Sequence record: OZ035751.1 | From: Lambdavirus PDP110P1 | Reading direction: 5' to 3' (one strand) | Length of the DNA: 48,490 bases | Part shown: piece by piece, positions 11,502-48,488 of the stretch | Layout of the letters: each line of letters opens with the position of its first letter | How positions within the stretch are numbered: position 1 is the first letter of the stretch | The notes under the pieces: generated by a model | What the model was told of the DNA's origin: nothing | Database searches by the model: none | The model's input: only the letters and a program-made list of their open reading frames with translations | Made by a program: the position numbers and the translations under genes

Positions 11502-12257
11502 ATGTCTAATATCATCCCCATGAATTACGATGACCGTTCATTTCCTTTTACTGCTGACTGCTGGTTCAATGCCACGGTTGCCGCAAAGCATCACGGCAAG
11601 CTACCAAAGGACTGGCTAAAGACTGAGGCGACAAAAATTTATATCGCCGAATTGGCTGAGGAGCTTGGAATTGCTGGCTCCGGCGTAAAAGAGGATTTTT
11701 CTCCCCTTTTAGTCAGAGTGGAGAAAGGGCGAAACGGCGGGACCTGGCTTCATCCGGAGTTGGCGGTGGAGTTCGCCCGCTGGTTGTCAGTAAAATTCGC
11801 CCGAGCCTGTGACCGACACATTAAAAATCTGCTACTGAGTAAAAACTTCCAGCTCACTGAAGATCAAATTGTCGGCCTGATGGTCTGTCAGCAACCCACC
11901 TCTTGGGAAAAACGATTTAAAGACCCGTTCTACCAGGCGCTGTCGAAAATGTCCGGCCTTCCTTACTTTGGTCATGTCGGTGGTTGCCCGGCGCTGTTCG
12001 GTCAGATCACCGCTCGATGGGTGTACGGTGTCGCACTTCCCGATTATGTCTATCAGGCAGCAAAACAAGCAGCGGGCGACAGCAGAGAGAAGATTCACCA
12101 GCACCTCAAGCCTGATGCGCTGGATAAGGTCGAGCAGCAATTGATCGCCGTTACCAATATCGCGAATTGCAGCATTGACCAGAAGGACTTCGAGGCCCGT
12201 TGCATGGCCGCGTTTCCCGTTAAGGGTCAGATGAAACTGCTGTATGCGGCGGCGTGA
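11502..12257 (+). CDS. KilA-N domain protein (moron)
   Basis: 251 aa; N-terminal KilA-N-like region (…GTWLHPELAVEFARWL…); sits between two terminators inside the tail module. Confidence 0.6.
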   Translation: MSNIIPMNYDDRSFPFTADCWFNATVAAKHHGKLPKDWLKTEATKIYIAELAEELGIAGSGVKEDFSPLLVRVEKGRNGGTWLHPELAVEFARWLSVKFARACDRHIKNLLLSKNFQLTEDQIVGLMVCQQPTSWEKRFKDPFYQALSKMSGLPYFGHVGGCPALFGQITARWVYGVALPDYVYQAAKQAAGDSREKIHQHLKPDALDKVEQQLIAVTNIANCSIDQKDFEARCMAAFPVKGQMKLLYAAA

Positions 12258-12589: not shown

Positions 12590-12970
12590 ATGAAAAAGGT
12601 TCTATTGGTTGCAGCAATAGCGGTTGTACTTGCCGGTTGTGCTTCTGGCGGCAATAAGTCGATTGAGCAAGAAACGCAGATTGGCGTTCAGAGTAAAATA
12701 ATCAAAGGAAAGACGACGAAGCAAGAAGTTAAGGCTGCATATGGAGATCCAGCTGGGGTATCAATCTCCAGTGATGGGAAAGAACAGTGGCACTATGTTT
12801 TCACAAACACACAGATCAGCGGGAAAGCATTTATTCCCATCTATGGACTATTTGATAACGGCGCTACTACCAACATGAAGCAGCTTATAATCGTGTTTAA
12901 GGGCGATATTGTAGATAATTACTTATTTAATAATTCAAATACAGAAGTTAAATCAGGCCTCCTAAACTAA
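12590..12970 (+). CDS. outer-membrane lipoprotein, BamE/SmpA-OmlA-like (moron)
   Basis: signal peptide with lipobox LAG-C; core IKGKTTKQEVKAAYGDPAGVSISSDGKEQWHYVF resembles the BamE/OmlA fold motif; visibly AT-rich; own terminator. Confidence 0.6.
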   Translation: MKKVLLVAAIAVVLAGCASGGNKSIEQETQIGVQSKIIKGKTTKQEVKAAYGDPAGVSISSDGKEQWHYVFTNTQISGKAFIPIYGLFDNGATTNMKQLIIVFKGDIVDNYLFNNSNTEVKSGLLN

Positions 12971-13716: not shown

Positions 13717-15681
13717 GTGATCATGGCAGCAACGGTAATTGACGCCCTCCTGGTTACGCTGGGCCTTGATACTTCTCAGTTCCGCAAAGGCCAGCAGGAA
13801 GTCAGTGATGACCTGAAAAAGCAGCGCGAAGATGCCAAAAATACCGCCAAGGAAATGGCGGAGCAGGGCAAGAAAGCCGCTTCGTTCTTCAGCAGCATAA
13901 AGACGGAATTGCTGGCACTAACTGGTGTTACTGTCACTGCCGGCGGCCTGATAAGCTTTGTGAAAAGCACCACTTCCGGCCTGATGGATTTATCGATCCA
14001 GTCGAAAGTGCTGGGGCTGTCAGCCCGTGAGCTTGATGGTTGGTCGAAGTCAGCAGAGGCAGCAGGGAGTTCAGCTGAGAAGATAAGCGCTTCTCTGCAG
14101 GGGTTTCAGGGCGCTATACAGGGCGCGAGGGTCGGCGATTACAGTAGCTCTATTTTTGGTGGTCTGGCGCAATTAAATGCTCTGACGGGCCAGAATTTTG
14201 ACGTGTGGGGACAGGATGCCAGTTCCCTGGCCAAAACATCCCTTGATGCGCTACGGAAAATCAGCGATCCAAACCTTCGCCGGCAGGTCGGGTTAAGTCT
14301 TGGATTTGATGATGCAACCTTGCAGCGTAATCAGGAAGGGAAATTCCTGCCTGACGTTGATCGCCTGACTAAAAGCTCCGGCATTACAGACGCCTCAACC
14401 AAAGGCGCAAAGGAAGTTACAGCTGCATGGGCGGAGCTGGGACAAAATCTTGACACGGTAAAAAACCAGATTTACGTGGGTTTGATACCAACCATTCGCG
14501 ATCTGAATGATTTCCTCATAGAGTGGTCGTCTGGTAACGCAAAATCCTCTTCATTCTTCAAAGAGCTGAAGCGGGACATTAACGACATTACTGGTATTGA
14601 CCTTGGTAGCTGGACGCTATCAGGCGATCTGCGCAACCTCAAAGATAACTTTTCCATGCTCGGAAAAGTGCTCAATCACCTGGGTAACGCTTTAAACGAG
14701 CTCAATAACGGCAACTTCTCCAAGGCTGCCGATGAGTTTAAAAAGGCGTGGTATGGCACTGAAGACGGAAAGCCTACCGGTAATGATGCGCTGCCCGGAG
14801 TGACCAAGGCAGCCGAGCAGGCGCTGAAGAAAAACGGCGGAACACTGGATTTTAAACCTGATCAGGACTCTGCGTATCTAAGCCCGCAGCAGCAGGCAAC
14901 GCAGAAAATGCTGGATGCAGTTAAGTTTCAGCCGCTTCCTGAACAGCGCAGGCAGCAGCAGGATGAGAGAGACTACTGGGAAAGCACCAAAAATCTCCTT
15001 TCAAAAATCGCTGATGCCCTGATCTCTCCAGCTGGCGCGGCAACAATGCAGCCAGATACCTCGGGATACCAGCCAAACGTCCCGCTTAACGCACAGGCTG
15101 CTCGCCTTGGCGCCAAAGGAAGGGCATTTCTTCAGGCTATGGCTGGCGAATTCGGGGCGCTGGAAGGTAAATATGGACTTCCCGCTGGGCTGCTGTCTTC
15201 GGTGGCTGGTACTGAATCGGGTGGCGACCCGTTCGCAGTATCCCCCAAAGGGGCGAAAGGCCCATTCCAGTTTATGGATGGAACTGCCAGAGACTTGGGT
15301 TTGAAGGGGATGGACGTTTATGACCCCCACAAGTCAGCTGATGCCGCTGCAAGATATTTGCGCTATCTGCTGGATGCTACTGGTGGCGATCTGGAAAAAG
15401 CTCTTGCCTCCTATAACTGGGGGCTCGGAAACGTCCAGAAGAAAGGCATGGACAACCTACCGTCGGAAACTCGCAATTACGTCCCTAAAGTCATGGCCGG
15501 AATGCGCCCCGGCGCCGGGATGGCCGTAGACCGAGCGATGCCCGTGCAGTCCGGTGCGACTTATCAGTTTTATGGCACCAAAATCACCACCCAGGCCCAG
15601 AACGTGGAACAGCTTACCAGCGACATCAAAAAGCACGGCGACAACCGTGTCATGCTTTTGGCTGGCTACTCAGGACAATAA
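13717..15681 (+). CDS. tail tape measure protein with C-terminal lytic transglycosylase (SLT) domain
   Basis: 654 aa; coiled-coil-rich N-terminal part; SLT motif …GTESGGDPFAVSPKGAKGPFQFMDGTARDLG…; ATG at 13723 has the better RBS. Confidence 0.7.
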   Translation: MIMAATVIDALLVTLGLDTSQFRKGQQEVSDDLKKQREDAKNTAKEMAEQGKKAASFFSSIKTELLALTGVTVTAGGLISFVKSTTSGLMDLSIQSKVLGLSARELDGWSKSAEAAGSSAEKISASLQGFQGAIQGARVGDYSSSIFGGLAQLNALTGQNFDVWGQDASSLAKTSLDALRKISDPNLRRQVGLSLGFDDATLQRNQEGKFLPDVDRLTKSSGITDASTKGAKEVTAAWAELGQNLDTVKNQIYVGLIPTIRDLNDFLIEWSSGNAKSSSFFKELKRDINDITGIDLGSWTLSGDLRNLKDNFSMLGKVLNHLGNALNELNNGNFSKAADEFKKAWYGTEDGKPTGNDALPGVTKAAEQALKKNGGTLDFKPDQDSAYLSPQQQATQKMLDAVKFQPLPEQRRQQQDERDYWESTKNLLSKIADALISPAGAATMQPDTSGYQPNVPLNAQAARLGAKGRAFLQAMAGEFGALEGKYGLPAGLLSSVAGTESGGDPFAVSPKGAKGPFQFMDGTARDLGLKGMDVYDPHKSADAAARYLRYLLDATGGDLEKALASYNWGLGNVQKKGMDNLPSETRNYVPKVMAGMRPGAGMAVDRAMPVQSGATYQFYGTKITTQAQNVEQLTSDIKKHGDNRVMLLAGYSGQ

Positions 15682-16831: not shown

Positions 16832-17697
16832 GTTACAAGGAGAGAGAGCTTACCGTATCGTTCACGCTGGCTAACGGTACGTTTGACGGCGGAATTGGTA
16901 ATACGCTGACGGTTAAAGGCTTCAAGTGTGAGGCTGCTATATCTGCCTTTGGCGGCGCTACAGGCACAATGATGGAGCTAAGCCTGTGGGGCCTGTCACT
17001 GGAGAACATGGCCAAGCTGACGACCAACGCGCAAAAAATAATCGCCGCCGAGCAAAATGCTATCGTCGTTTATGCTGGCGACACCCGTGTTTTTTCCGGG
17101 TCAATAACATCAGCCAGGATTAACCTGAACCAGATGCCGGATGCGCCGATTGAGATAACCGCGGCGGCCGCCGGCAGGGAGCGCCTGATCCCCTGTGAGC
17201 CCACATCCATTCGCGGCGATGCGGATGTGGCTGATATGATTCGCGCTCTTGCCTTTAAAGTTGGCCTGAAATTCATCAATGTCGACGTCAAAAGCACCGA
17301 GCGCAACCCGGTGTACAAAGGCAATGCGATAAAGCAGATCATTGAAATAGCAGCTGCGCATAAAATAACGGTAAATATTGATTTTGGCACCGTCACTATT
17401 TACACCGGGAAGAAACCCTCTGACTCTGTCGTTCCATATGTTTCTCCATCAACAGGGCTTATTGGGTATCCGATTTTTTATGACATGGGGATTAACTTTC
17501 GCTGCATTTACTCTCCATCTCTGAAACTGAATACCAAAATCATCCTTGAGACTGACCTGCCGCACGCAAGCGGGGAATGGATTATTCAGGCAGGAACCAC
17601 TCATTATCTTTCCTGTAAAGTTCCCGGTGGTCTGTGGGAAACGTTCGTCGTGGCCGCGCCTGGGTATCTTGTAAAAGGTGATGAAAATGCTAACTAA
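16828..17697 (+). CDS. putative baseplate hub protein
   Basis: 289-aa ORF, overlapping starts and stops with neighbours. Confidence 0.4.
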   Translation: MSYKERELTVSFTLANGTFDGGIGNTLTVKGFKCEAAISAFGGATGTMMELSLWGLSLENMAKLTTNAQKIIAAEQNAIVVYAGDTRVFSGSITSARINLNQMPDAPIEITAAAAGRERLIPCEPTSIRGDADVADMIRALAFKVGLKFINVDVKSTERNPVYKGNAIKQIIEIAAAHKITVNIDFGTVTIYTGKKPSDSVVPYVSPSTGLIGYPIFYDMGINFRCIYSPSLKLNTKIILETDLPHASGEWIIQAGTTHYLSCKVPGGLWETFVVAAPGYLVKGDENAN

Positions 17698-18277
17698 CCA
17701 GACCCCTGAGAGCGTGTCATCACAGGGTAACGCCATATTATCGCTGCTACATTCAGCGCTGAAAGGAATGACGTTTGTTGATATTGTTCTGGTTAGGGAG
17801 GTTGAAGGCGATGTGTTGACCGTTCTCCCCCTGGTTAATGATGTAGACGTTTCAGGCCGGGCCATTGCCAATCAGGACGTTTACCAGATCCCATATCTCA
17901 GACTTCAGGCGGGAAACAGCGCGGTAAAAATGGAGCCAAGGCCTGGAGACATTGGTCTGGTTGTTATCTGCGACAAGGACACCACGAACGTTAGGGAAAC
18001 CAGATCAGAGGGGCCCGCACCAACTCAGCGCCGCCACTCGTATTCCGATGCGATGTACATAACCGCAATAGCCAGCATGAATGGGGAACCTACTGAATTT
18101 GCTGAATTTACTGGAAGTGGCATAAATATAAAAAGCCCGGGCGTGGTTAACATCAATGGCTTGAAAGTCCACTCAGATGGCAAACTTGAGCTTGTCGATG
18201 GCTCTATCGTTGATGGGCATGACCATGGCGGGGTAATATCAGGGGGAAGCCGAACCGATCCTCTGGCGCCGGCATAA
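17678..18277 (+). CDS. putative baseplate spike/assembly protein
   Basis: 199-aa ORF in baseplate cluster. Confidence 0.35.
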   Translation: MMKMLTNQTPESVSSQGNAILSLLHSALKGMTFVDIVLVREVEGDVLTVLPLVNDVDVSGRAIANQDVYQIPYLRLQAGNSAVKMEPRPGDIGLVVICDKDTTNVRETRSEGPAPTQRRHSYSDAMYITAIASMNGEPTEFAEFTGSGINIKSPGVVNINGLKVHSDGKLELVDGSIVDGHDHGGVISGGSRTDPLAPA

Positions 18278-18288
18278 AGGGAATAAAA

Positions 18289-18669
18289 ATGTCGCTCTTA
18301 GTCATAGCTGCTCTGCTTGGATTAATTCCTGCCTTTATCGCTCAAAGTAAGGGGAGGTCATTTGGCGCGTGGTGGTTGTATGGATTCCTTCTTTTCATCG
18401 TCGCCATTATTCATGTTCTTTTCGTTACGCCACACAATACAGCAGGCACCGTTGCCAGTGACTCAATCGGCCCCATGCGAGATTGCCCATATTGTGCAGA
18501 GCCAGTGAAGTATCAGGCCTCAAAATGCAAGCATTGTGGTAGTGAGATAGAACCTATACCGATCCCTGAGCCAAAATATAATGGAACTCAGATAGCCTGG
18601 AGCAGAATTGCAATTTTGATTGGAGGGATTGTGTTGCTGGCTATCATTTCAGGCATCATAGGCAAATAA
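18289..18669 (+). CDS. membrane protein with zinc-ribbon (moron)
   Basis: 126 aa; two N-terminal and one C-terminal hydrophobic helices flanking CPYC…CKHC; followed by a strong terminator. Confidence 0.55.
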   Translation: MSLLVIAALLGLIPAFIAQSKGRSFGAWWLYGFLLFIVAIIHVLFVTPHNTAGTVASDSIGPMRDCPYCAEPVKYQASKCKHCGSEIEPIPIPEPKYNGTQIAWSRIAILIGGIVLLAIISGIIGK

Positions 18670-18693
18670 ACCCGCTAAAAACTCAAAAATAAA

Positions 18694-18719
18694 AACCTCG
18701 CTTCGGCGGGGTTTTTTTA
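18694..18719 (+). terminator. rho-independent terminator
   Basis: CCTCGC-TTCG-GCGGGG followed by TTTTTTTAT; near-identical to the terminator at 12989-13014. Confidence 0.7.
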
Positions 18720-18731
18720 TGGGCGAAATCC

Positions 18732-19088
18732 ATGAAAACAATATCTCTCAAACTTGACCCAGATACCTGGGATCTTGTCCTTGATGAGCTGGGTAATATC
18801 GCCACGGTTGAAAACCCCTACGCCTGCGCTCAGGACGTAGCGACGGCATGCCTGGCTATACGCGGCGAGTGCATTTACGAAAAAGACACCGGCGTTAATT
18901 ACAAAGAGCTGCTTAACGTTAAGGCCAGCACTGGCGCCATGGCGGCCGCGCTTCAGGTTGAAGCGTTGCGGATGAGCTATATCGCGCGAGCTGAGCCGAC
19001 GCTGATTAACAACAGCGATACGCGCCGCACTACCGGCGTTATTGCGATCGTGGATACCAACGGCCTGGATTCCAGCGTCACCCTGTGA
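18732..19088 (+). CDS. putative baseplate protein (gp25/W-like position)
   Basis: 118-aa ORF preceding the J-like baseplate gene. Confidence 0.35.
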   Translation: MKTISLKLDPDTWDLVLDELGNIATVENPYACAQDVATACLAIRGECIYEKDTGVNYKELLNVKASTGAMAAALQVEALRMSYIARAEPTLINNSDTRRTTGVIAIVDTNGLDSSVTL

Positions 19089-20909: not shown

Positions 20910-22205
20910 TTGAATAATTCAGCCATACCGTCACGTCTGACGGTTGTCTTTTCTGTGAGCGGCGATAAAAACACGATCCCGGTCAATTCCACCTCTGAAA
21001 CGCTGGCCGACGGCCTGGCGGCTATGGATTCCGGTTTCCCGCCGCTGACCCGTATCGCACTTTCTGCCGGCGGTAAGCCGCCAAAGGGTCAGGACTTTAA
21101 CGGCATTTTTAATGATCTTTACACTCGCCTGCAATGGTCGGATGCCGGGATGGGGTACCCCTTTAACGCAGATTTCAGAACAGCCATTTCAGGCTACCCT
21201 AAAGGTGCGGTGATCCCTTCCAGCGATTACTCGGTGTCGTGGCTCAACACCATTGACTCCAATAACACCGCACCGGAAAAAACCGATGCAACGGCATCTG
21301 GCTGGATGCCTTCATGGGGATGCGGAGCGGCCAGCATTTCAATATCGACGGCTAACGTTAACGCCACCGATCTGCAGGCTGCTAACCCACGGCTAATTCT
21401 CACCGGCGCGCTAACTGGCAACCGGGTCCTTTATCTTCCGCCCTGGGTGAAAGACTGGACCATCGAAAATAACTGCACCGGCAGCGCTTACTACGTTCAG
21501 TTAAGCACCAGGGCAGCGGGCGCAACGGTTGTCAGCAAGCCAGGCACAGTTACTCAAGTCCACTCCGATGGAATCAACGTAACCTCCCTTTCTACGCCTC
21601 ATGGAAACATCGCTTACGCAGTCAACGGGACATATTCGTTCGTCGTGCCTGCAGGGGTGACGCGTATTCGTTACACCGTGACGGGTGCAGGTGGATCGGG
21701 AAGCGGTTGTCAGGCGTCCTCCTCAAGTGAGTCCTATAGCGGTGGCGGGGGCGGGGCTGGAGGCACAGCAATAGGCTGGCTGGATGTTGTTCCGGGAACG
21801 ACCTTGTCAGTTGTTGTGGGCAAAGGCGGTGCAGCGGTTTTAGGTGCCGTATCCGGCAATGACGGTGGTGACTCTTCTTTGGGTGGGATCATCTTCGGTC
21901 GCGGCGGCAAAAAAGCCAACAAGGCCAGCATCGTGAACAGCGCCGGTGGTGATGGTGGTCTTGCATCAGGTGGCGATATCAACATTCAGGGTGGTACCGG
22001 TCAGGACGGCCAGGCAGCGACAAACATGCTTACCGGTTCTGGCGGTGCTTCGTTCTGGGGTGGTGGCGGACGTAGCGGCGCAACCGGCGGTGTGAAAGGG
22101 AAAGCAGCAGGCTCTGGCGGTGGTGGTGCTTACGATATTGATTTCAGCGGAATAGCTTACCCATCCGGCGATGGCGCCGATGGCATTGTGCATATCGAGT
22201 GGTAA
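20910..22205 (+). CDS. tail fibre protein with glycine-rich C-terminal domain
   Basis: 431 aa; TTG start with GGAGG RBS; C-terminal Gly-rich domain paralogous to that of 25986-27017. Confidence 0.55.
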   Translation: MNNSAIPSRLTVVFSVSGDKNTIPVNSTSETLADGLAAMDSGFPPLTRIALSAGGKPPKGQDFNGIFNDLYTRLQWSDAGMGYPFNADFRTAISGYPKGAVIPSSDYSVSWLNTIDSNNTAPEKTDATASGWMPSWGCGAASISISTANVNATDLQAANPRLILTGALTGNRVLYLPPWVKDWTIENNCTGSAYYVQLSTRAAGATVVSKPGTVTQVHSDGINVTSLSTPHGNIAYAVNGTYSFVVPAGVTRIRYTVTGAGGSGSGCQASSSSESYSGGGGGAGGTAIGWLDVVPGTTLSVVVGKGGAAVLGAVSGNDGGDSSLGGIIFGRGGKKANKASIVNSAGGDGGLASGGDINIQGGTGQDGQAATNMLTGSGGASFWGGGGRSGATGGVKGKAAGSGGGGAYDIDFSGIAYPSGDGADGIVHIEW

Positions 22206-22219
22206 TAACAGGAAAAATT

Positions 22220-25030
22220 ATGGCGACTACCGACACACAGCAAACGGCACAGTTCGCGGCAGAGGCTGCTGTTAGTGCCGCAGAGGCGAAGCAGTACTTG
22301 ATCGAGGTCCAGCAGGGCTATCAGGACATAAGCGCCACCACTCAGGAAGCGATTAATGCAGCCACAGCGGCAGAGGCGGCGAAGATCGCCGCAGAAACTG
22401 CTGAGCAAAATTCATCTACTTCGGCCGCAGCCTCATCCGAATCGGCAACGGCAGCCGCAGGTTCAGCAGCACAGGCTGAAGAGTATGCAAATAACGCTTC
22501 TGACTACGCACAGAATAAGTTCACGTTCTATAAGACTGCCAGCGATCCTGATGGCACCATTGCAGGGTTGGCAGCAACTACTGACGGCCAGTCGTTCTGG
22601 GTAGCTCAGGGGCCAGATGCGCTTTCTGCTGCATGGCAGTATCAAAACAATGCTGGCGTGGCCGTATTGCAGGCAAAGCAGCCAGGCACGGCAGCCATAA
22701 CCGGGACAATCCGCGAATTCCCCACGCTGGAGGCGGCACAGGATGATGCCGATGCCGGCAATATTCCTACAGGTTCAACTGCGTATTATCGAAGCGCTGA
22801 CGACGAAACTCTTGCGATTGAGGTTATTAACACTTCAGGAACGCTGCAGCCTACTGGACGAAAAATGCCATCCGCAATGCCAATGGGTTACCAGTCTGCT
22901 ACAGCTGTGAGTAGCGGTGCGGCTAATACCATTGCTATCACTATCCCCGGATTATTAGTGGATGGCAGTTTGATTTATTTCCTGTCTCCTATTTTGAATA
23001 CGGCGGCTGTTAGCGTTACCGTGACAGATGCCAGGGGGAACTCGGTTACTCGGGCAATACAGAAACAAAATAATGCAGCTTTAGTTGGGAATGAGTTGCT
23101 TCTCAATCAGCCCGCACTGATGGAATTCCGCACTGGGACTGCTAACAATTTTGTCCTTGTGGCATCCGGCCCAGTAGCTGCTGAACTTGCGTCAAGAATT
23201 TCCACGCTTGAATTAAATAGCGTAGCGTTATTGTCTGGCGTTGCTAATACTGCGGACGCCTACACCGCGTCAGCGTCAGCGATACCAGGCCTGGTTGCCT
23301 CTGACCGCGTTTTCCTTTTCACTCCGAGTGCGACGAACACGACACGGACGCCGACCTTATCCGTGAATGGCGGCACTGCGCGCCAGATCAAACAGGCGAA
23401 TGGTACCAACGTCGCAGCGGGAGACCTGGTCTCTGGCTACCCTTATTTATTAAAATTCAATTTTGCATCGGCTGACTTTCGTATGCTCACATACCCAGCG
23501 GACCGGACGCGTCTGCTCAGCGGCCAGCAGAAGGCCACCGTAACCAGTGACGCAACAAGCCCGAACGCTATATCTTTAACAATCCCGGGCCTTATCGCGG
23601 ACGGCACACAAATCACATTCGAGCCAGCTGTCACCAATACCGGGGCGGTGACGCTGCTAATCACCAACATGTATGGCGACACCGTGACTCGCACCCTGAT
23701 GAAAGGGGCTAACACTCCTCTCGTCGGTGGTGAACTGAAGTACGCCATGCCGGTTTCTATCATGTTCAGGGGGGCTCCACAGAACAACTTTAAGCTCCTA
23801 TATGCTGGCGACCCTACCACGGATATACAGACCCTATCGAACGACGTTACGACGCTCAAGGGGTCGCTGACAGACCCTTATGCTGCTCTGGCGGATAAAC
23901 TCGTGGGCACCGGGGTATTATCAGACCAGTCACCATTCGGTACTATAACTTGGTCCGCGGGGGTTAAGAGCGTCACTAAGCGGCAGATCATTTGTACGTC
24001 TGTCGGGTCTTCTGTTGGCGTTGGGGCCGGCTCTACTGGCGGTGGTGCGGCAGGTGCCGCTTATGCACCGAACACACTGTTCGTCAACGCCTTGAAGGAA
24101 GAGCTTAAACAGTACGGCGAGTTTGACGTCATCGATGACAACCAGTGCATACCAACTCAGGCGATTCAGCAGTTCGCTGCCCAGCTAGCGAATTCGCCTT
24201 ATTCAACCTCCGACTTTGTTTTGATTGTAGGGGGGATGAATGATGCGCCAGTTGGTAACTTCAACATGGGGCGCACATTCCCCGGTCAACAAACGTCTCT
24301 CGAGTCGCTGGTAGACTTGTGTCTGGCACGAGGAGCGATTCCAATCATTTGCACTACTCCACATCATAATGTGGAAATGTCTCAGACGTACCCCACAATC
24401 CCCGGTGGTAACCCGCTGTTCTGGCCGTTCAGGACATATAATGTCACAAGTACATATGTCTTCGACGCCGTTGCAAATACCATCACGCAGAGTAACTTTG
24501 CTAACCCGAATTATGGCGGCAATATTCTGAAGCCGGGGCATACTCTGCGCGTAGAAAGTGGAGACAATATCGGCAACTATACTATCACGGCCATTTCCTC
24601 TGACCGGAATACCATAACCGTCCAAGAGACAATCCCGGTAAGTGGAAGCTACTCGACAACGGTCAGACACTTTAACCTGCAGTCCATCGCTGAGGATATT
24701 CTTTACCCTGCACCGTCGGTTTCCTTTGTAACAAAAGACTGGTCCGGTAGCGGCGTTAAGGTACAGGGAGATGTGCGGTTCGAAATGGTGAATAATATGC
24801 AAAGGGTCGTCGCACGCAAAAAAGGCGCGTTCCTCGCAGACTGTGAAAAGTCGTTCTTTAAGTATGGTGTAGAGGTTGGTGGTTACTCGTCGGTATATAA
24901 CGTCCCAGCTGGAAACTACAATCACATGAACGATAACGGGTACACAGTAACTTTCGACTACACGCTGAAAGTCGCAGCAAGGAAGATTGCCAATCTCATA
25001 TTCGGAGATAAATATTACTCTGCAGCATAA
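22220..25030 (+). CDS. tail fibre/tailspike with SGNH/GDSL-hydrolase-like domain
   Basis: ~936 aa from ATG 22220; Ala-rich coiled-coil N-terminus typical of fibres; GDSL-like segment (…ICTSVGSSVG…LIVGGMNDA…). Confidence 0.5.
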   Translation: MATTDTQQTAQFAAEAAVSAAEAKQYLIEVQQGYQDISATTQEAINAATAAEAAKIAAETAEQNSSTSAAASSESATAAAGSAAQAEEYANNASDYAQNKFTFYKTASDPDGTIAGLAATTDGQSFWVAQGPDALSAAWQYQNNAGVAVLQAKQPGTAAITGTIREFPTLEAAQDDADAGNIPTGSTAYYRSADDETLAIEVINTSGTLQPTGRKMPSAMPMGYQSATAVSSGAANTIAITIPGLLVDGSLIYFLSPILNTAAVSVTVTDARGNSVTRAIQKQNNAALVGNELLLNQPALMEFRTGTANNFVLVASGPVAAELASRISTLELNSVALLSGVANTADAYTASASAIPGLVASDRVFLFTPSATNTTRTPTLSVNGGTARQIKQANGTNVAAGDLVSGYPYLLKFNFASADFRMLTYPADRTRLLSGQQKATVTSDATSPNAISLTIPGLIADGTQITFEPAVTNTGAVTLLITNMYGDTVTRTLMKGANTPLVGGELKYAMPVSIMFRGAPQNNFKLLYAGDPTTDIQTLSNDVTTLKGSLTDPYAALADKLVGTGVLSDQSPFGTITWSAGVKSVTKRQIICTSVGSSVGVGAGSTGGGAAGAAYAPNTLFVNALKEELKQYGEFDVIDDNQCIPTQAIQQFAAQLANSPYSTSDFVLIVGGMNDAPVGNFNMGRTFPGQQTSLESLVDLCLARGAIPIICTTPHHNVEMSQTYPTIPGGNPLFWPFRTYNVTSTYVFDAVANTITQSNFANPNYGGNILKPGHTLRVESGDNIGNYTITAISSDRNTITVQETIPVSGSYSTTVRHFNLQSIAEDILYPAPSVSFVTKDWSGSGVKVQGDVRFEMVNNMQRVVARKKGAFLADCEKSFFKYGVEVGGYSSVYNVPAGNYNHMNDNGYTVTFDYTLKVAARKIANLIFGDKYYSAA

Positions 25031-25985: not shown

Positions 25986-27017
25986 ATGGCGCTGAAGCTA
26001 TTAGCCAATAATAACGCAAAGAGTGTTCTCGCTGCGGGTATTAGCGCGTCCGCTACCGTTATTACCGTGGGTACTGGAGCTGGGTCTTTATTCCCGTCCC
26101 CTGTATCTGGGCAGAGTTATTTCAAATTAACGATAACCGACGCGGCCACGAAAACAATTTCTGAAATTATGCACGTCACGTCTGTATCCGGTGACGTGAT
26201 GACAGTAATTCGTGGTCAGGAAGGAACTACGGCACGCGTATGGTCAACGAATGACATTGTCGCGAATTTAATGACCGCCGGATCATTGTTGTCGTTCCTG
26301 CAGATCAGCAATAACCTGTCAGAAATTAAAGATGCCGGTGAGGATGCGATAAATGAAGCCCGTTATAACCTCGGAATATCTGATTCCTCTGGTTTTGTCG
26401 GGCGTTCACTTGGCGCTCCAAAAGCTTTCTATGCAAACGGAACCTATACGCGATCTCCTCTGGCCCGTTATGCAAAAGTAACGTTGACCGGTGCCGGTGG
26501 CGGCGGTGGCGGCTGCCAGGCCTCCAACAATACAGAAACCTTCTCCGGTGCTGGCGGCGGCGCGGGCGCGACCATTATCGTATGGGTTGACCTGTCTGCT
26601 GCCAGTTCTTATGCGATTACTGTCGGCAAGGGTGGTAAGGGCGGAGTTGGCGCAGTAAGTGGTGCGGATGGTGGGGCCACCTCGTTTGCCAGCCTGTTCT
26701 CAGCTCCTGGCGGGAAAGGAGGAGTGAAGTCAGGCGTGTCCAATACCGCCGGCGGCGCCGGAGGTACGGCGGCGACCGGAGATATCAGGATCAACGGTGG
26801 TACCGGCTCAGATGGACAGACAGGCTCAAGCCTTCTGACGGGCAACGGCGGGGCGTCGTATTTTGGCGGCGGTGGCCGGGCGGGTTCTCAGGCCGGTATT
26901 GCTGGCGCAGCTCCCGGATCCGGTGGTGGTGGCGCGTATGACCTTGGGTTTACCGGTACGGCATTTACCGGTGGTGATGGTGCTACTGGCATGGCGATCG
27001 TGGAAGAATTCGCGTAA
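25986..27017 (+). CDS. tail fibre protein with glycine-rich C-terminal domain
   Basis: 343 aa; C-terminal ~170 aa paralogous to C-terminus of 20910-22205. Confidence 0.55.
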   Translation: MALKLLANNNAKSVLAAGISASATVITVGTGAGSLFPSPVSGQSYFKLTITDAATKTISEIMHVTSVSGDVMTVIRGQEGTTARVWSTNDIVANLMTAGSLLSFLQISNNLSEIKDAGEDAINEARYNLGISDSSGFVGRSLGAPKAFYANGTYTRSPLARYAKVTLTGAGGGGGGCQASNNTETFSGAGGGAGATIIVWVDLSAASSYAITVGKGGKGGVGAVSGADGGATSFASLFSAPGGKGGVKSGVSNTAGGAGGTAATGDIRINGGTGSDGQTGSSLLTGNGGASYFGGGGRAGSQAGIAGAAPGSGGGGAYDLGFTGTAFTGGDGATGMAIVEEFA

Positions 27018-27159: not shown

Positions 27160-27420
27160 ACCTTGCGCTAATGCTCTGTTACAGGTCACTAATACCATCT
27201 AAGTGGTTGATTCATAGTGACTGGATATGTTGTGTTTTGTAGTATTATGCAGTCTATTATTTAGACTAAATCTTTCATAACATATTGATATTTACAGTGT
27301 TTTCTGTTTATTGTTCAGCTTTTTTATACTAAGTTGGCATTATAAAAAAGCATTGCTTATCAATTTGTTGCAACGAACAGGTCACTATCAGTCAAAATAA
27401 AATCATTATTTGATTTCAAT
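27160..27420. other. attP: attP (lambda-type; core 27318-27332)
   Basis: lambda core GCTTTTTTATACTAA with flanking lambda arm sequence (…ACAGGTCACTA…), adjacent to int. Confidence 0.85.
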
Positions 27421-28476
27421 TTTGTCCCACTCCCTGCCTCTGTCATCACGATACTGTGATGCCATGGTGTCCGACTTATGCCCGAGAAGATGTTGAGCAA
27501 ATTTATCGCTTATCTGCTTCTCATAGAGTCTTGCAGACAAACTGCGCAACTCGTGAAAGGTTGGCGGATCCCCTTCGAAGGAGAGACCTGATGCTTTTCG
27601 TGCGCGCATAAAATACCTTGATACTGTGCCGGATGAAAGCGGTTCACGACGAGTAGATGCAATTATGGTTTCTCCGCCAAGAATCTTTTTGCATTTATCA
27701 AGTGTTTCCTTCATTGATATCCCGAGAGCATCAACATGCAATGTTGTTGGGATAGCAATTTTTACGCCTGTTTTGCTTTGCTCGACATAAAGATATCCAT
27801 CTACGATATCAGACCACTTCATTTCGCATAAATCACCAACTCGCTGCCCGGTAACAACAGCCAGTTCCATTGCAAGTCTAAGCCAACATGGTGATGATTC
27901 TGCTGCTTGATAAATTTTCAGGTATTCGTCAGCCGTAAGTCTTGATCTCCTTACCTCTGATTTTGCAGCGCGAGTGGCTGCGACCGGGTTTGTTGTTATA
28001 TGGCCTTCAGCTATAGCCTCTCGGAATGCATCGCTCAGTGTTGATCTGATTAACTTGGCTGATGCCGCCTTGCCCTCGTCTATGTATCCATTGAGCATTG
28101 CCGCAATTTCTTTTGTGGTGATGTCTTCAAGTGGAGCATCAGGCAGACCCCTCCTTATTGCTTTAATTTTGCTCATGTAATTTATGAGTGTCTTCTGCTT
28201 GATTCCTCTGCTGGCCAGGATTTTTTCGTAGCGATCAAGCCATGAATGTAACGTAACGGAATTATCACTGTTGATTCTCGCTGTCAGAGGCTTGTGTTTG
28301 TGTCCTGAAAATAACTCAATGTTGGCCTGTATAGCTTCAGTGATTGCGATTCGCCTGTCTCGGCCTAATCCAAACTCTTTACCCGTCCTTGGGTCCCTGT
28401 AGCAGTAATATCCATTGTTTCTTATATAAAGGTTAGGTGGTAAATCCCGGCGCTCATGACTTCGCCTTCTTCCCAT
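27406..28476 (-). CDS. int: integrase (lambda Int, tyrosine recombinase)
   Basis: 356-aa protein MGRRRSHERRDLPPNLYIRNNGYYCYRDPRTGKEF…, recognised as lambda Int. Confidence 0.95.
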   Translation of the reverse strand: MGRRRSHERRDLPPNLYIRNNGYYCYRDPRTGKEFGLGRDRRIAITEAIQANIELFSGHKHKPLTARINSDNSVTLHSWLDRYEKILASRGIKQKTLINYMSKIKAIRRGLPDAPLEDITTKEIAAMLNGYIDEGKAASAKLIRSTLSDAFREAIAEGHITTNPVAATRAAKSEVRRSRLTADEYLKIYQAAESSPCWLRLAMELAVVTGQRVGDLCEMKWSDIVDGYLYVEQSKTGVKIAIPTTLHVDALGISMKETLDKCKKILGGETIIASTRREPLSSGTVSRYFMRARKASGLSFEGDPPTFHELRSLSARLYEKQISDKFAQHLLGHKSDTMASQYRDDRGREWDKIEIK

Positions 28477-38081: not shown

Positions 38082-38726
38082 TTAACCAAACGTCTCTTCA
38101 GGCCACTGGCTGGCGATAACTTTCCCCACAACGGAACAACTCTCATTGCATGGGATCATTGGGTACTGTGGGTTTAGTGGTTGTAAAAACACCTGACCGC
38201 TATCCCTGATCAGTTTCTTGAAGGTAAACTCATCACCCCCAAGTCTGGCTATGCAGAAATCACCTGGCTCAACAGCCTGCTCAGGGTCAACCAGAATTAA
38301 CATCCCGTCAGGAAAACTAGGTTTGGATCCTGTTGGCGCGGTCATGGAATTACCTTCAACCTCAAGCCAGAAAGCTTTTTCGCTGGCTTTTGTGGTCGTT
38401 GGGACCCATGCCTTTGCATCGCTGGCTGTGTAGCTTCCCACCTCCGAAAATGGCCCGGCCTGCACTGAAGAAAATAACGGGTATTCATATTGGCGAAATA
38501 CGGCGTCTGAATCCTCGCCAAACATTATTTTTGCCGGAGATACGCCGAGTGCCGCCCCAAGAACCAGCGCGTCATCCGCGCTAACCTTTCTTGTTCCTAA
38601 CTCGTAGTTCCCCAGGCGTGAAGGCGCAGCCCAGCCGCAAAGCTTGGCCAATTGAGCCTGGCTAAGTCCTTTAGCTTCTCTAAGGGACTTGATCCTTTCC
38701 CCGATAATTTCATGCATCGTTTTCAT
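38082..38726 (-). CDS. cI: CI-type repressor (HTH plus LexA-like S24 peptidase domain)
   Basis: 214 aa; N-terminal HTH (…[24 protein letters not shown]…), C-terminal autocleavage domain; divergent from cro across operators. Confidence 0.85.
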
Positions 38727-43969: not shown

Positions 43970-44618
43970 TGGCAGCAAATACCGAAATATTTGGGTAGTT
44001 GGCGATCTGCACGGATGCTACACGAAACTGATGAAAAAACTGGAGACGATAGGATTCGACACCAAAAAAGACCTGCTTATCTCGGTTGGCGATTTGGTTG
44101 ATCGCGGTACAGAGAACGTCGAATGCCTGGAATTAATCACATTCCCCTTTTTCAGAGCTGTACGTGGAAACCATGAGCAAATGATGATTGATGGCTTATC
44201 AGAGCGTGGAAACGTCAATCACTGGCTGTTTAATGGCGGTGGCTGGTTCTTTAATCTCGATTACGACAAAGAAATTCTGGCTAAAGCTCTTGCCCATAAA
44301 GCAGATGAACTTCCGTTAATCATTGAACTGGTGAGTAAAGGTAAAAAATATGTCATCTGCCACGCCGATTATCCTTGTGACGAATACGAATTTGGAAAGC
44401 CAGTTGATTATCAGCAGGTAATCTGGAACCGCGAACGAATCAGCAACTCACAAGACGGGGTCGTGAAAGAAATCAAAGGCGCGGACACGTTCATCTTTGG
44501 TCATACGCCAGCAGTGAAACCACTCAAATTTGCCAACCAGATGTATATCGATACTGGGGCAGTGTTCTGCGGAAATCTCACATTGATTCAGGTACAGGGA
44601 GAAGGCGCATGGGAATAA
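43947..44618 (+). CDS. ninI: Ser/Thr protein phosphatase (NinI)
   Basis: 223 aa from MRYYEKIDG; calcineurin-like motifs GDLHG, GDLVDRG, GNHE. Confidence 0.85.
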
Positions 44619-45127
44619 GAGAATTAAACCTCACCAAAGAGCAGCACGAGTGGCTGAATGGCTGGCTTGAACTGTGGGGGGCATGGGTTTATTCAGGTCG
44701 TCTGGAAAAGCGCATGAGCAGCGTAATAGCTAAGTTCATGGAGAGCGTAGAGCCGGGAAGAGTTATGACAAGGCCAATGTGTAATGATGATGATGGAATG
44801 TTGATTTCTCAGGTCGTCGATTCCGTCATGTACATTGACAAGAAAGCCTTTGGCATCCTCCTCAGCTACTACGCTCATGGTTCATCTAAGCGAGCAATTG
44901 CATCCTACTATCACGCGACTGCAAAGCCACGCAAGATGTGTGGACGTGGTGGCGAGGGATGGAGAAAACCTTCACTGGCAACCTGTAGAAACGAAATTGA
45001 CGACATCCTGAAAGCGTCGTTATTTGTTTTGTACCAACCAATGCAAAATGCTTTCAAAATGCGTAAACGTGTTGAGAAAGTTAAGCATGTTGCTGTTAAA
45101 AGCCTTGACATGCAATTAGCCATTTAG
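44609..45127 (+). CDS. late antiterminator Q-like protein (non-lambda type)
   Basis: 172 aa, unlike lambda Q; sits between ninI and the lysis genes; Cys-rich; a strong promoter lies in its 3' end followed by an early terminator. Confidence 0.5.
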
Positions 45128-45634: not shown

Positions 45635-45958
45635 ATGAAGATGCCAGAAAAACATGACCTGTTAGCCGCCATTCTCGCGGCAAAGGAACAAGGCATCGGG
45701 GCAATCCTTGCGTTTGCAATGGCGTACCTTCGCGGCAGATATAATGGCGGTGCGTTTACAAAAACAGTAATCGACGCAACGATGTGCGCCATTATCGCCT
45801 GGTTCATTCGTGACCTTCTCGACTTCGCCGGACTAAGTAGCAATCTCGCTTATATAACGAGCGTGTTCATCGGCTACATCGGTACTGACTCGATTGGTTC
45901 GCTTATCAAACGCTTCGCTGCTAAAAAAGCCGGAATAGAAGATGGTGGAAATCAATAA
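45635..45958 (+). CDS. S: holin S
   Basis: 107 aa [22 protein letters not shown]… with Met1-Lys2-Met3 dual start; recognised as lambda S. Confidence 0.9.
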
Positions 45959-46418
45959 TCAACGTAAGGCGTTCCTCGATATGCTGGCGTGGTCAGAGGG
46001 AACTGATAACGGACGTCAGAAAACCAGAAATCATGGTTATGACGTCATTGTTGGCGGAGAGCTATTCACTGATTACTCCGATCACCCTCGCAAACTTGTC
46101 ACGCTAAACCCCAAACTCAAATCAACAGCCGCCGGACGCTACCAGCTTCTTTCCCGTTGGTGGGATGCATACCGCAAGCAGCTTGGCCTGAAAGACTTCT
46201 CTCCGAAAAGCCAGGACGCAGTGGCACTGCAACAGATTAAAGAGCGTGGCGCTTTACCGATGATTGACCGCGGTGATATTCGTCAGGCAATCGACCGTTG
46301 CAGCAATATCTGGGCTTCACTGCCGGGCGCTGGTTATGGCCAGTTCGAGCATAAGGCTGACAACCTGATTGCAAAATTCAAAGAGGCTGGCGGAACGGTC
46401 AGAGAGATTGAGGTATGA
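45942..46418 (+). CDS. R: endolysin R (lytic transglycosylase)
   Basis: 158 aa [26 protein letters not shown]…; recognised as lambda R. Confidence 0.9.
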
Positions 46419-46882
46419 GCAGAGTAACCGCGATTATCTCAGCTCTGGTTATCTGCATCATCGTTTGCCTGTCATGGGCTGTTAATCATTACCGTGATAA
46501 CGCCATCGCCTACAAAGAGCAGCGCGATAACAAGGCCAGTGAACTGGAGAAGGTGAACGCCACCATTACTGACATGCAGCAGCGCCAGCGTGATGCTGAT
46601 GCACTCGATGCTAAATACACGAAGGAGTTAGCCGATGCAAAAGCTGAAAATGATGCTCTGCAGCGCAAGCTTGATAATGGTGGTCGGGTGCTCGTCAAAG
46701 GCAAGTGTCCAGTGTCAGCCGCAACCCAAACCACCGGCGCCGCCAGCATGGGCGATGATGCCACCGTCGAACTCTCTGCAGTTGCTGGACGAAACGTTCT
46801 TGGTATCCGATCCGGAATCGTCAGCGACCAAACAGCCCTGAGAGCGCTGCAGGAATACATCACCACGCAGTGTTTGAAATAA
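46415..46882 (+). CDS. Rz: spanin inner-membrane subunit Rz
   Basis: 155 aa; N-terminal TM helix then coiled-coil; lambda Rz-like. Confidence 0.85.
46635..46841 (+). CDS. Rz1: spanin outer-membrane lipoprotein Rz1 (embedded in Rz, +1 frame)
   Basis: 68-aa ORF inside Rz; lipobox VVG-C; Pro-rich; RBS GAAGGAG. Confidence 0.7.
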
Positions 46883-47228: not shown

Positions 47229-47852
47229 TATGTTTAGTTCTGCAGACACACCGATCCCCGGAATGGAGGTTCCGTTCACGTGGCAGGCTAGCCTGGAGTT
47301 AAACGCGAAGCTTTACTCTGCGCTGGGGCAGTGCAATCTGGATAAGGCGGGGATTAGAAAGGTAGAGGAAGAACGCCGTAGTACTTTGCAATGATGCTGC
47401 AGATTAGGATGACGATGGCATTAATTGCCGGGGCAAACGGTGCCAATGTATTTAGTACTTCTAACATGTATACCTCCTTGGTTGTGAATGGTTGTCAGCG
47501 CTTCTCTTGTGTAACTTATTCCTCCTGTGGCTGTTCCTACTCGTTTAACATTAAAGGCCTTGAACGGTTATTTTTCGTTCTATACTCGCCACTATTGAGT
47601 GTCCAACGTGTTGGACAAGCCCTTCCTAATAGTGAGTCTTAATAGCTTCTGAGCAGTCTTTGTCTCTTATAAGAGACAAGCACATCCATGCCGGCAGACA
47701 AAGGTAGGTACCGAAAGAGGCGTTCAATAATTTTATAAAGTTCTGCAAATGATGCCTTTTTGTATCATTGACAGAGTTTTATGTGAGTTTACGGGTGCTG
47801 CGGTGTCGAAATTACCGAAATGGCATCAAAGCAACCCAGAGGATTATTCTGT

Positions 47853-48488
47853 ATGGCTGGAAATGACAATCGCAGACCATACCCTCCCGTCAACTTCACT
47901 GGCGAAAACTGGCTGCCTTATACCCGGCTGATCCCTGCTGCCGAAATCGGCGAATGGGTAAATCAGAACATCCTCTCCGAAGATGGCCGAATCCATAACC
48001 CTGACCATGCGCACTTGCTCGATGCTGATGTCGCGTTCATGTGGGCCTCTGGCTCATTCGCCAAAAGCGGCCGCATTGTGCTGGGCCAGTGTGAGCAGGT
48101 AATGATGCGCGCCGGTGGCTGGCAGAAAGCCAGAATGGAGCAGCAGATGCATGAATGGTTCGGACGCATACCGAAGTTCATCATCACCCTGGCTGCTGAC
48201 TACTGCGAGCAATGCAACGATCTGGAGTTCTGCGCACTGGTAGAGCATGAGCTTTACCACATCGCCCAGGCTACCGATGACTATGGCGCGCCGAAATTCA
48301 ACAAAGAGACCGGTATGCCGGTGCTCAAACTTCGCGGCCACGACGTCGAGGAATTCGTCGGAGTTGTCCGGCGTTACGGCGCCAGCAAAGACGTGCAGGA
48401 AATGGTGGATGCGGCGAACAGGCCGGCGGAGGTTGCTCATATCGATGTTGCCAGAGCGTGTGGGACGTGCATGCTGAAACTGGCTTAA
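47853..48488 (+). CDS. HExxH-motif protein (putative metallopeptidase) upstream of the packaging genes
   Basis: ~211 aa from ATG 47853 (RBS GAGGA); motif HELYH; track ORF starts at 47820. Confidence 0.45.
   Translation: MAGNDNRRPYPPVNFTGENWLPYTRLIPAAEIGEWVNQNILSEDGRIHNPDHAHLLDADVAFMWASGSFAKSGRIVLGQCEQVMMRAGGWQKARMEQQMHEWFGRIPKFIITLAADYCEQCNDLEFCALVEHELYHIAQATDDYGAPKFNKETGMPVLKLRGHDVEEFVGVVRRYGASKDVQEMVDAANRPAEVAHIDVARACGTCMLKLA

Follow-up and report, generated by a model that had tools for sequence, protein, structure and literature searches.

To our knowledge, very few protein families exclude phages at the point where DNA enters through the inner membrane (T4 Imm, HK97 gp15 and P22 SieA), and their mechanisms are largely unknown. 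The HK97 protein gp15 is a small inner-membrane protein that is expressed from the prophage and blocks the genome entry of HK97 and HK75 in a manner that depends on the tail region (PMC3594210). P22 SieA has three predicted transmembrane (TM) helices, resides in the inner membrane and blocks DNA injection; the mutations that escape it map to the ejection proteins (PMC10883804). This report concerns a gene of Lambdavirus PDP110P1 (sequence record OZ035751.1; the window, i.e., the whole stretch of DNA that was analyzed, is 48,490 nucleotides (nt) long) that lies at positions 18289..18669 on the plus strand. The gene, which was recognized from the list of open reading frames (ORFs) and the sequence, has an ATG start and encodes a predicted membrane protein of 126 amino acids that carries a zinc ribbon; it is referred to here as the moron gene. 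We suggest, from its anatomy and context and with slightly less than even confidence, that its product may be a lysogen-expressed inner-membrane block to phage genome entry. Its likeness to gp15 and SieA would be one of analogy, not of homology.

The comparison with gp15 has two sides. Both are small proteins of the inner-membrane type (for the moron protein, by prediction), and both genes are cassettes in tail operons with a terminator and, in gp15 and most copies of the moron family, a promoter or promoter-like site; some relatives of the moron protein hold exactly the gp15 slot, which is the one between the tail assembly chaperone (TAC) and tape-measure protein (TMP) genes. However, gp15, a YebO-like protein, has 62 amino acids, a single TM helix, a coiled-coil tail and no zinc ribbon, and it has no sequence similarity to the moron protein. 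P22 sieA is likewise a late-region gene that follows the ejection-protein genes and sits beside mnt-arc-ant, and the P22 order 16-sieA-mnt-arc-ant-9 parallels the commonest Klebsiella order, which is spike, moron, arc on the minus strand, ant, further genes and a gp25-like gene. Unlike the moron protein, SieA has no Cys4 motif, its gene is on the strand opposite to the late genes and has its own mapped promoter, and P22 is a podovirus rather than a myovirus. A third system to be considered is lambda rexAB and other genes that are co-transcribed with the repressor, because homologs of the moron gene in Serratia and Rahnella lie directly 3' of the CI gene and are co-oriented with it. However, rexAB is a two-gene sensor-channel pair, whereas the moron is a single small gene with no similarity to RexA or RexB, and the PDP110P1 copy is located in the tail module.

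The 126-amino acid protein consists of MSLLVIAALLGLIPAFIAQSKGRSFGAWWLYGFLLFIVAIIHVLFV, a linker, CPYCAEPVKYQASKCKHC, a second linker and WSRIAILIGGIVLLAIISGIIGK, in that order. Kyte-Doolittle windows exceed 1.6 over residues 1-45 and 103-126. An AlphaFold2 model, built on a 39-sequence alignment and with a mean predicted local distance difference test (pLDDT) score of 84, has helices at residues 2-20 and 25-45, which form a tight hairpin with a four-residue turn, and at residues 104-125; residues 46-60 are disordered and residues 63-86 form a two-knuckle beta ribbon. Three TM helices are therefore predicted by both AlphaFold2 and hydropathy, and the third one (residues 104-125) is preceded by a conserved juxtamembrane motif, NGTQIAWSR. 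The Cys4 motif is made up of CPYC (66-69) and CKHC (80-83), and its four cysteines (C66, C69, C80 and C83) are invariant across 41 aligned homologs. Pfam Zn_ribbon_3 (PF13248) matches the protein with 25.3 bits, slightly under the 27-bit cut-off, and is matched by all 41 aligned members at E-values up to 1, the best being 2.4e-10; UPF0547, DZR and DZR_2 are further weak Pfam matches. The initial annotation of this DNA had described a zinc ribbon together with two N-terminal hydrophobic helices and one C-terminal one, and the ORF, the hydropathy, the AlphaFold2 model and the cysteine motif all bear this out. The product is a putative inner-membrane protein.

The ribbon itself is of a widespread kind. 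The CPxC...CxxC two-knuckle ribbon is shared with Zn_ribbon_3, UPF0547 and DZR proteins such as the N-terminus of TcaA, residues 1-34 of which align weakly in NCBIfam. Motifs of the Zn_ribbon_3 type are generic and have no assigned function, and the combination of a zinc ribbon with a TM helix is a common design of bacterial membrane proteins; the N-terminal hairpin of the moron protein is in no curated family. The wider searches gave the same picture. NCBIfam returned weak zinc-ribbon matches alone (the TcaA N-terminus and Rad18), far under their cut-offs, a PDB sequence profile search returned only the zinc ribbons of ribosomal protein L32 (E around 0.05), and a BFVD fold search of viral predicted structures returned only unannotated 'zinc-ribbon containing' metagenomic phage proteins.

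The 45-residue hairpin (18289-18435; IPAxIAxxKGRSFxxWWxYG...H) is in no Pfam family, and a search of 1.84 billion representatives found it in 1,715 clusters at 50% identity. The proteins that contain it (P0123-P0255) have 55-749 amino acids and carry it at the N- or the C-terminus, sometimes in duplicate; it is fused to, among others, HTH_3, TonB_C, TPR/DUF6273 and lipoprotein domains. These fusions also bear on the orientation of the ribbon, which the initial annotation had placed in the cytoplasm. The hairpin loop of four to six residues has two or three Lys/Arg in 41 of 41 members, and the N-terminal tail has none and is often acidic. By the positive-inside rule this bias would put the loop in the cytoplasm and the ribbon in the periplasm. 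P0128, in which a lipoprotein signal and a periplasmic domain stand ahead of the hairpin and imply an N-out arrangement, also favors a periplasmic ribbon. On the other hand, P0184 has the same order of hairpin, ribbon and third TM helix as the moron protein, with RARERDRKHK ahead of that helix and a Pro-rich linker and TonB_C after it; TonB_C is a periplasmic domain, and so the ribbon of P0184 would be cytoplasmic. P0153, in which a 200-amino acid coiled coil with no signal peptide is followed by two hairpins, implies an N-in arrangement and favors the same side. Cys4 ribbons generally require a reducing compartment, a further point in favor of the cytoplasm. With the fusions P0184 and P0153 for a cytoplasmic ribbon and the loop bias and P0128 against it, we lean slightly toward the cytoplasm.

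The two neighbors of the moron gene are backbone genes, and its position between baseplate genes was correctly described at the outset. The left one (17678-18277, plus strand) encodes a gpV-like baseplate spike with weak Pfam N-domain and Apex matches, and its position corresponds to that of gp27 of Edwardsiella phage Edno5, which is annotated as 'baseplate spike'. The right one (18732-19088, plus strand) encodes a sheath initiator or gp25-like wedge protein (PHROG 120, 4e-29), homologs of which match Pfam Sheath_initiator. A megablast search of PDP110P1 against phage genomes matched six Klebsiella phages. Only ST15-VIM1phi2.1 is collinear throughout, and the others break at about 18693 or about 18728. 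On the left, the homology of the aligned relatives stops precisely with the stop codon of the spike gene; on the right, it returns either at a terminator that is described below (RCIP0114 and KpnBHU6) or at the start codon of the gp25-like gene (KP12 and ST899-OXA48phi17.1).

What the relatives carry between these two edges varies. The slot contains a 262-amino acid protein with a signal peptide in RCIP0114; a secreted 118-amino acid protein, an Arc repressor, a Bro-N/P22_AR_C antirepressor and a further gene for 250 amino acids in KpnBHU6; and about 3.6 kilobases (kb) of DNA that includes Arc and Ant in ST899-OXA48phi17.1. A prophage of Raoultella sp. BIGb0138 (L026 4981-6917) has a 217-amino acid lipoprotein, a SocA_Panacea antitoxin gene (6.9e-28) and a gene for 135 amino acids that has no family match; this is likely toxin-antitoxin or defense cargo, with the last two as a possible pair. 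The slot has the moron gene in KP12 and in P0013, which is the commonest allele (98 index blocks), and the gene is followed there by arc on the minus strand, ant and other genes. In the more distant phage Edno5 the slot is empty, the genes for spike gp27 and wedge gp28 having a 4-nt overlap. When species-representative genomes were scanned with the gp25-like protein, a single locus was found, L026, which is too few for statistics.

The composition of the gene is also distinct. Its G+C content is 45.7%, and 44.1% at third codon positions, compared to 48-55% and 51-68%, respectively, in seven flanking tail genes. Between the PDP110P1 and KP12 alleles of the moron, the synonymous divergence (dS) is saturated, the nonsynonymous divergence (dN) is 0.19 and their ratio (omega) is about 0.05, i.e., strong purifying selection, and the genes flanking the moron are about 96% identical between the two phages. 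These values point to an old, selected coding sequence that would move by recombination, and the spike-wedge slot appears from the alignments to be a recombination hotspot for cargo in the PDP110P1 lineage. We read 18289-18669 as a moron because its flanks adjoin in Edno5, relatives carry other cargo, its G+C content differs and relatives of its protein occupy unrelated slots. That it is a genuine moron is well supported at the sequence level by insertion, terminator and base composition.

The initial annotation had proposed such an insertion and had seen no structural role for the protein, and both statements agree with the comparison of relatives: the slot is empty in Edno5, near-identical modules have other cargo, and the gene does not have a conserved presence in all related tail modules. 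A structural role is rejected, the gene being dispensable in relatives. A virion, baseplate or assembly component might be expected from a gene that is inside a baseplate cluster, runs in the same direction and seems to be translationally close to the spike gene, but we consider this explanation effectively refuted. Phages whose baseplate genes are nearly identical lack the gene, as does Edno5; a protein with three hydrophobic helices cannot be a soluble baseplate subunit; and homologs are found beside CI and at several different siphovirus tail positions.

The homologs indicate how widely the gene has spread. A search of 5.8 billion proteins at E-values up to 1e-3 gave 498 matches with lengths of 88 to 215 amino acids, and those that have a source name are all from Enterobacterales. 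A tblastn search adds one Salmonella phage and about nine Pseudomonas phages that have a copy, and more distant copies in phages of Microcystis. A search at the DNA level found the E. coli homolog, annotated as 'zinc ribbon domain-containing protein', in 11 of 5,426 complete genomes. PHROG 8436 matches at 8e-40 over profile positions 1-109 of 110; its annotation is 'unknown function', and so the family had already been clustered among phage proteins. The residues that are invariant in 41 members are G11, A18, K21, G22, R23, W28, W29, Y31, G32, H42, C66, P67, C69, A70, E71, A77, C80 and C83, and I13, P14, A15, I17, S24, F25, F36, A39, K81, H82 and G84 are invariant or nearly so. The conserved core is thus the hairpin plus the ribbon, and the C-terminus is variable. 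In one variant (Klebsiella, Serratia, Rahnella and Pantoea) the third TM helix follows a DGT(K/Q)IxW(K/R)R motif; the others have a short acidic tail, a helical domain of about 90 amino acids that ends in LPxxLRxEF, or extra zinc ribbons. The family is compact (90-180 amino acids) and can be recognized by the invariant hairpin and CPxCAE...CKHC.

In 13 of 13 cases the sampled genomic context of a close family member is a phage or prophage, and none is chromosomal core. The genes occupy eight types of slot: between spike and wedge in Klebsiella myophages; between TAC and TMP in Salmonella FSL SP-016 and an Enterobacter prophage; between the same two genes with a BamE-like lipoprotein ahead in Pseudomonas PP9W2, D14C and others (about nine phages); between the tape measure and gpM in E. 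coli; between gpL and gpK in Edwardsiella; between gpK and gpI in Atlantibacter, Hafnia and Xenorhabdus; between the tape measure and a DNA-circulation protein in a Mu-like Yersinia prophage; and directly 3' of, and co-oriented with, a CI-type repressor (HTH + S24) in Serratia and Rahnella. Seven of these adjoin tape-measure, tail-tip or baseplate genes and the eighth adjoins the CI repressor. The Serratia and Rahnella copies are the closest homologs outside Klebsiella that have the three-helix architecture. In the E. coli prophage (L014 5721-7106) the homolog is accompanied by three small genes (74, 85 and 75 amino acids) without Pfam matches, i.e., a multi-gene moron cluster.

This distribution bears on the suggestion that the protein could be a lysogenic-conversion factor unrelated to phages, which would act in host envelope physiology, stress tolerance, metal handling or virulence. 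The hairpin is widespread in non-phage proteins with diverse partners, PDP110P1 has other envelope-directed cargo (the BamE-like lipoprotein at 12590-12970) and the morons of tail operons include such factors (PMC3594210). However, contexts that are without exception phage or prophage, and hosts with lifestyles as different as those of Klebsiella, Edwardsiella, Xenorhabdus and Pseudomonas (and, distantly, the Microcystis phages), argue for a function centered on the phage, and we consider a conversion factor of this kind unlikely.

How the gene is transcribed is a more complicated matter. An intrinsic terminator, A5-CCTCGC-TTCG-GCGGGG-T7, was located by folding at 18691..18718 on the plus strand, at the right edge of the cargo slot. 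Its stem-loop CCTCGC/TTCG/GCGGGG (18696-18711) is preceded by A5 and followed by T7 (18712-18718); the stem-loop begins 26 nt past the moron stop codon, and the terminator ends 13 nt ahead of the gp25-like start codon. The centroid energy is -14.8 kcal/mol (z = -2.9), and one of 200 shuffles was equally stable. A consensus terminator scanner did not list the element at 18691-18718, probably because an A5:T5 extension of the stem consumes the T-run; this symmetry of A-tract and T-tract suggests that it could terminate in both directions. An identical 26 nt precede the gp25-like gene in RCIP0114, KpnBHU6 and L027, each with other cargo, and the 26-nt element is absent in KP12 and ST899-OXA48phi17.1. 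At least three different cargos thus share this terminator as the right edge of their slot. The initial annotation had described a strong intrinsic terminator after the gene; the hairpin and its T7 are present and stable, but the terminator is not private to the moron. Since the phage is temperate and Q-antiterminated, the terminator could confine transcription in the prophage state and would be read through late, and it probably insulates the downstream baseplate genes in the prophage.

On the promoter side, the copy in PDP110P1 is atypical. The spacer from the spike stop codon to the moron ATG (18278..18288, plus strand) has 11 nt, which include a Shine-Dalgarno-like AAGGG located 6 nt 5' of the ATG and leave no room for an intergenic promoter; the same 11-nt junction is present in KP12 and the P0013-type loci. 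A candidate weak promoter, TTGATG-18-TAATAT, lies at 18210..18239 on the plus strand, inside the 3' end of the spike gene. It matches the consensus at 8 of 12 positions and its counterpart in L027 (TTGATG-18-TAGAAT) at 9 of 12; this conservation is uninformative because the site overlaps conserved coding DNA of the spike apex. Other members of the family are different. We scored sigma-70 matches of at least 9 of 12 with a -10 element that ends 16-50 nt before the ATG, and such sites occur at 7 of 12 family loci, versus 0.011 expected per locus from the same-strand background of the same loci (binomial P about 2e-11, a value that is inflated by intergenic AT-richness and by loci that share a slot type). 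A GC hairpin with a T-run is found just 3' of the gene at 8 of 10 family loci, and in the P0013-type loci the moron has its own terminator, which it has in common with the convergent arc gene.

These observations might suggest a late lytic accessory gene, i.e., one that is transcribed only with the tail genes, that blocks injection by progeny or sibling phages or tunes the envelope or the timing of lysis, and that brings about no lysogenic conversion. The moron of PDP110P1 and of every P0013-type locus is on the late strand, separated from the spike gene by only 11 nt and with no good intergenic promoter, and the gene is co-oriented with the late genes in every tail-module context. However, most family members have their own promoter-like site, two members are in the immunity region beside CI, PDP110P1 already has a lysis cassette elsewhere, and relatives that lack the moron gene, e.g., RCIP0114, were isolated as viable phages. 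A purely late role is therefore improbable in our opinion. A role in lysis as such is rejected; the protein has no holin-family match, and a holin/endolysin/Rz/Rz1 cassette is present at 45.6-46.9 kb.

The explanation that we prefer is a block at genome entry. The 126-amino acid protein would sit in the inner membrane of a lysogen or of an already infected cell and would interfere with the DNA-entry channel that is built by tape-measure, spike or ejection proteins. Incoming phages would be stopped at the inner membrane, and the lysogen or already infected cell would be protected. We place this explanation first because the slots are biased to tape-measure, tail-tip and spike genes and because some copies are CI-adjacent. 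The initial annotation had named superinfection exclusion or abortive infection as a candidate function, and this proposal is plausible and agrees well with the genomic positions.

Several points weigh against it. A slot next to entry genes is circumstantial evidence for exclusion, and the morons of tail operons also encode virulence or fitness factors, e.g., lambda lom. Comparisons with known exclusion proteins were negative: BLASTP of HK97 gp15 against the 126-amino acid protein gave no alignment at E-values up to 100, and the best result with P22 SieA was E = 3.7 over 6 residues, so that no homology was detected. The 10 families that were listed for the protein at E-values up to 1 do not include Imm_superinfect (PF14373), and neither do the 25 listed of the 107 families that were matched by the 41 members. 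PADLOC-DB v2 gave LmuB alone at chance level (E = 0.071), and the full-text literature that was searched had no paper on the family and no experimental record of any member. The hairpin is generic, and its 1,715 clusters with many unrelated partners hence provide no phage-specific information. As for the cassette, the terminator belongs to the slot and not to the moron gene alone, and the best promoter-like site of the PDP110P1 copy is only 8 of 12 and within the spike coding sequence. With that site and the 11-nt spacer, expression in the lysogen is only a possibility, and the gene may be mainly expressed late.

The CI-adjacent copies are also the place to consider an abortive-infection or toxic effector, in which the hairpin would oligomerize and, on a cue sensed by the ribbon, depolarize the membrane and kill the infected lysogen, in a RexB-like manner, ahead of any replication of the invader. 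The position beside CI in Serratia and Rahnella is that of rexAB, the cassette is a single gene with its own promoter-like site and terminator, and the hairpin, in which 14 residues (including K21-G22-R23, W28-W29 and H42) are invariant or nearly so, is far more conserved than a plain anchor requires. Elsewhere the same slot has SocA_Panacea and the 135-amino acid gene, possibly a toxin-antitoxin pair. However, none of the sampled contexts has a consistently linked partner or sensor gene, PADLOC had no significant match, the hairpin also turns up in numerous proteins for which a toxic role is unlikely, and the bias to entry-gene slots (7 of 8 slot types) suits a block at entry better than suicide after entry. 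We find such an effector doubtful.

The block at genome entry can be extended to the family as a whole, although we offer this only as a possibility and a rather uncertain one. The family would then be a widespread, uncharacterized group of single-gene morons that encode inner-membrane zinc-ribbon proteins and block entry or abort infection in tailed phages of Enterobacterales and Pseudomonas, with contractile as well as non-contractile tails. Its action would be via a conserved step at the host inner membrane and not via one particular tape measure, and the hairpin would be a portable membrane module that is found in more than 1,700 clusters.

The rest of the genome shows a complete temperate Klebsiella phage whose layout is lambdoid and whose tail is contractile, i.e., a myophage. 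It has a lambda-type integrase (27409-28476, minus strand), a CI-type HTH + S24 repressor (38085-38726, minus strand) and a Q antiterminator (44609-45124, plus strand; Pfam Phage_antitermQ, 1.1e-25). The lysis cassette has a holin (45635-45955, Pfam Phage_holin_3_1), a putative endolysin-like ORF (45942-46415) that was assigned by eye and has no Pfam match, Rz (46415-46879, Pfam Phage_lysis) and a putative embedded Rz1 lipoprotein ORF (46635-46841), also assigned by eye. The tail genes run in the order DUF3383 sheath-like, tape measure, Dit-like, Pam3-gp18-like plug, E217-gp41-like hub, spike and moron, and continue 3' of the moron with gp25-like, Baseplate_J, DUF2612 and fiber genes. The tape measure (13717-15678, plus strand) ends in a lytic transglycosylase domain of the SLT type at its C-terminal side (residues 482-579, 1.1e-21) and is the most obvious candidate for a target or partner of an entry-blocking membrane protein.

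Some other genes of PDP110P1 deserve mention. The gene at 12590-12970 (plus strand), flanked by the tail tube region and by the putative genes for the chaperone and the tape measure, encodes a 126-amino acid lipoprotein with the lipobox LAGC and a BamE/SmpA-like domain whose match narrowly misses the cut-off (E = 2.3e-4). In Pseudomonas PP9W2 a BamE-like lipoprotein gene is directly 5' of the zinc-ribbon membrane gene in the TAC-TMP slot (L008 3521-3937). The lipoprotein of PDP110P1 may be a second envelope-directed moron, perhaps one that is functionally linked to the first. An antirepressor-like gene with KilA-N and P63C domains (11502-12257, plus strand), situated inside the tail operon, with the tail tube and the chaperone region on either side of it, looks like a further moron; in the relatives of PDP110P1 it is the spike-wedge slot, unlike this position, that the Arc/Ant module occupies. 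At the extreme end of the sequence, 47820-48488 (plus strand) encodes a 222-amino acid PhageMetallopep protein (4.4e-44) with an HExxH motif, and the position of this gene directly ahead of the terminase genes at the start suggests that the genome is complete or circularly permuted. Finally, a 943-amino acid tail-fiber-like protein (22199-25030, plus strand) shows at residues 603-731 a weak match, under the cut-off, to a GDSL/SGNH esterase domain, which is possibly a capsule or lipopolysaccharide deacetylase; it is flanked by proteins with Gly_rich_2 domains (20910-22205 and 25986-27017).

In conclusion, moron-encoded exclusion is already known as a phenomenon, and what is new here is a widespread family with a distinctive architecture. 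The spike-wedge slot is a clean natural cargo hotspot, with Arc/Ant, a Panacea antitoxin, lipoproteins and the moron gene among its contents, and it can be mined for accessory functions. If the moron protein is a true exclusion protein, it would fill a gap in the catalogs of defense systems, which currently miss this family, and it would matter for the phage therapy of Klebsiella, since such prophages are common in clinical clones. It would also provide a new and widely distributed tool to dissect how the tape measure and the spike cross the inner membrane.

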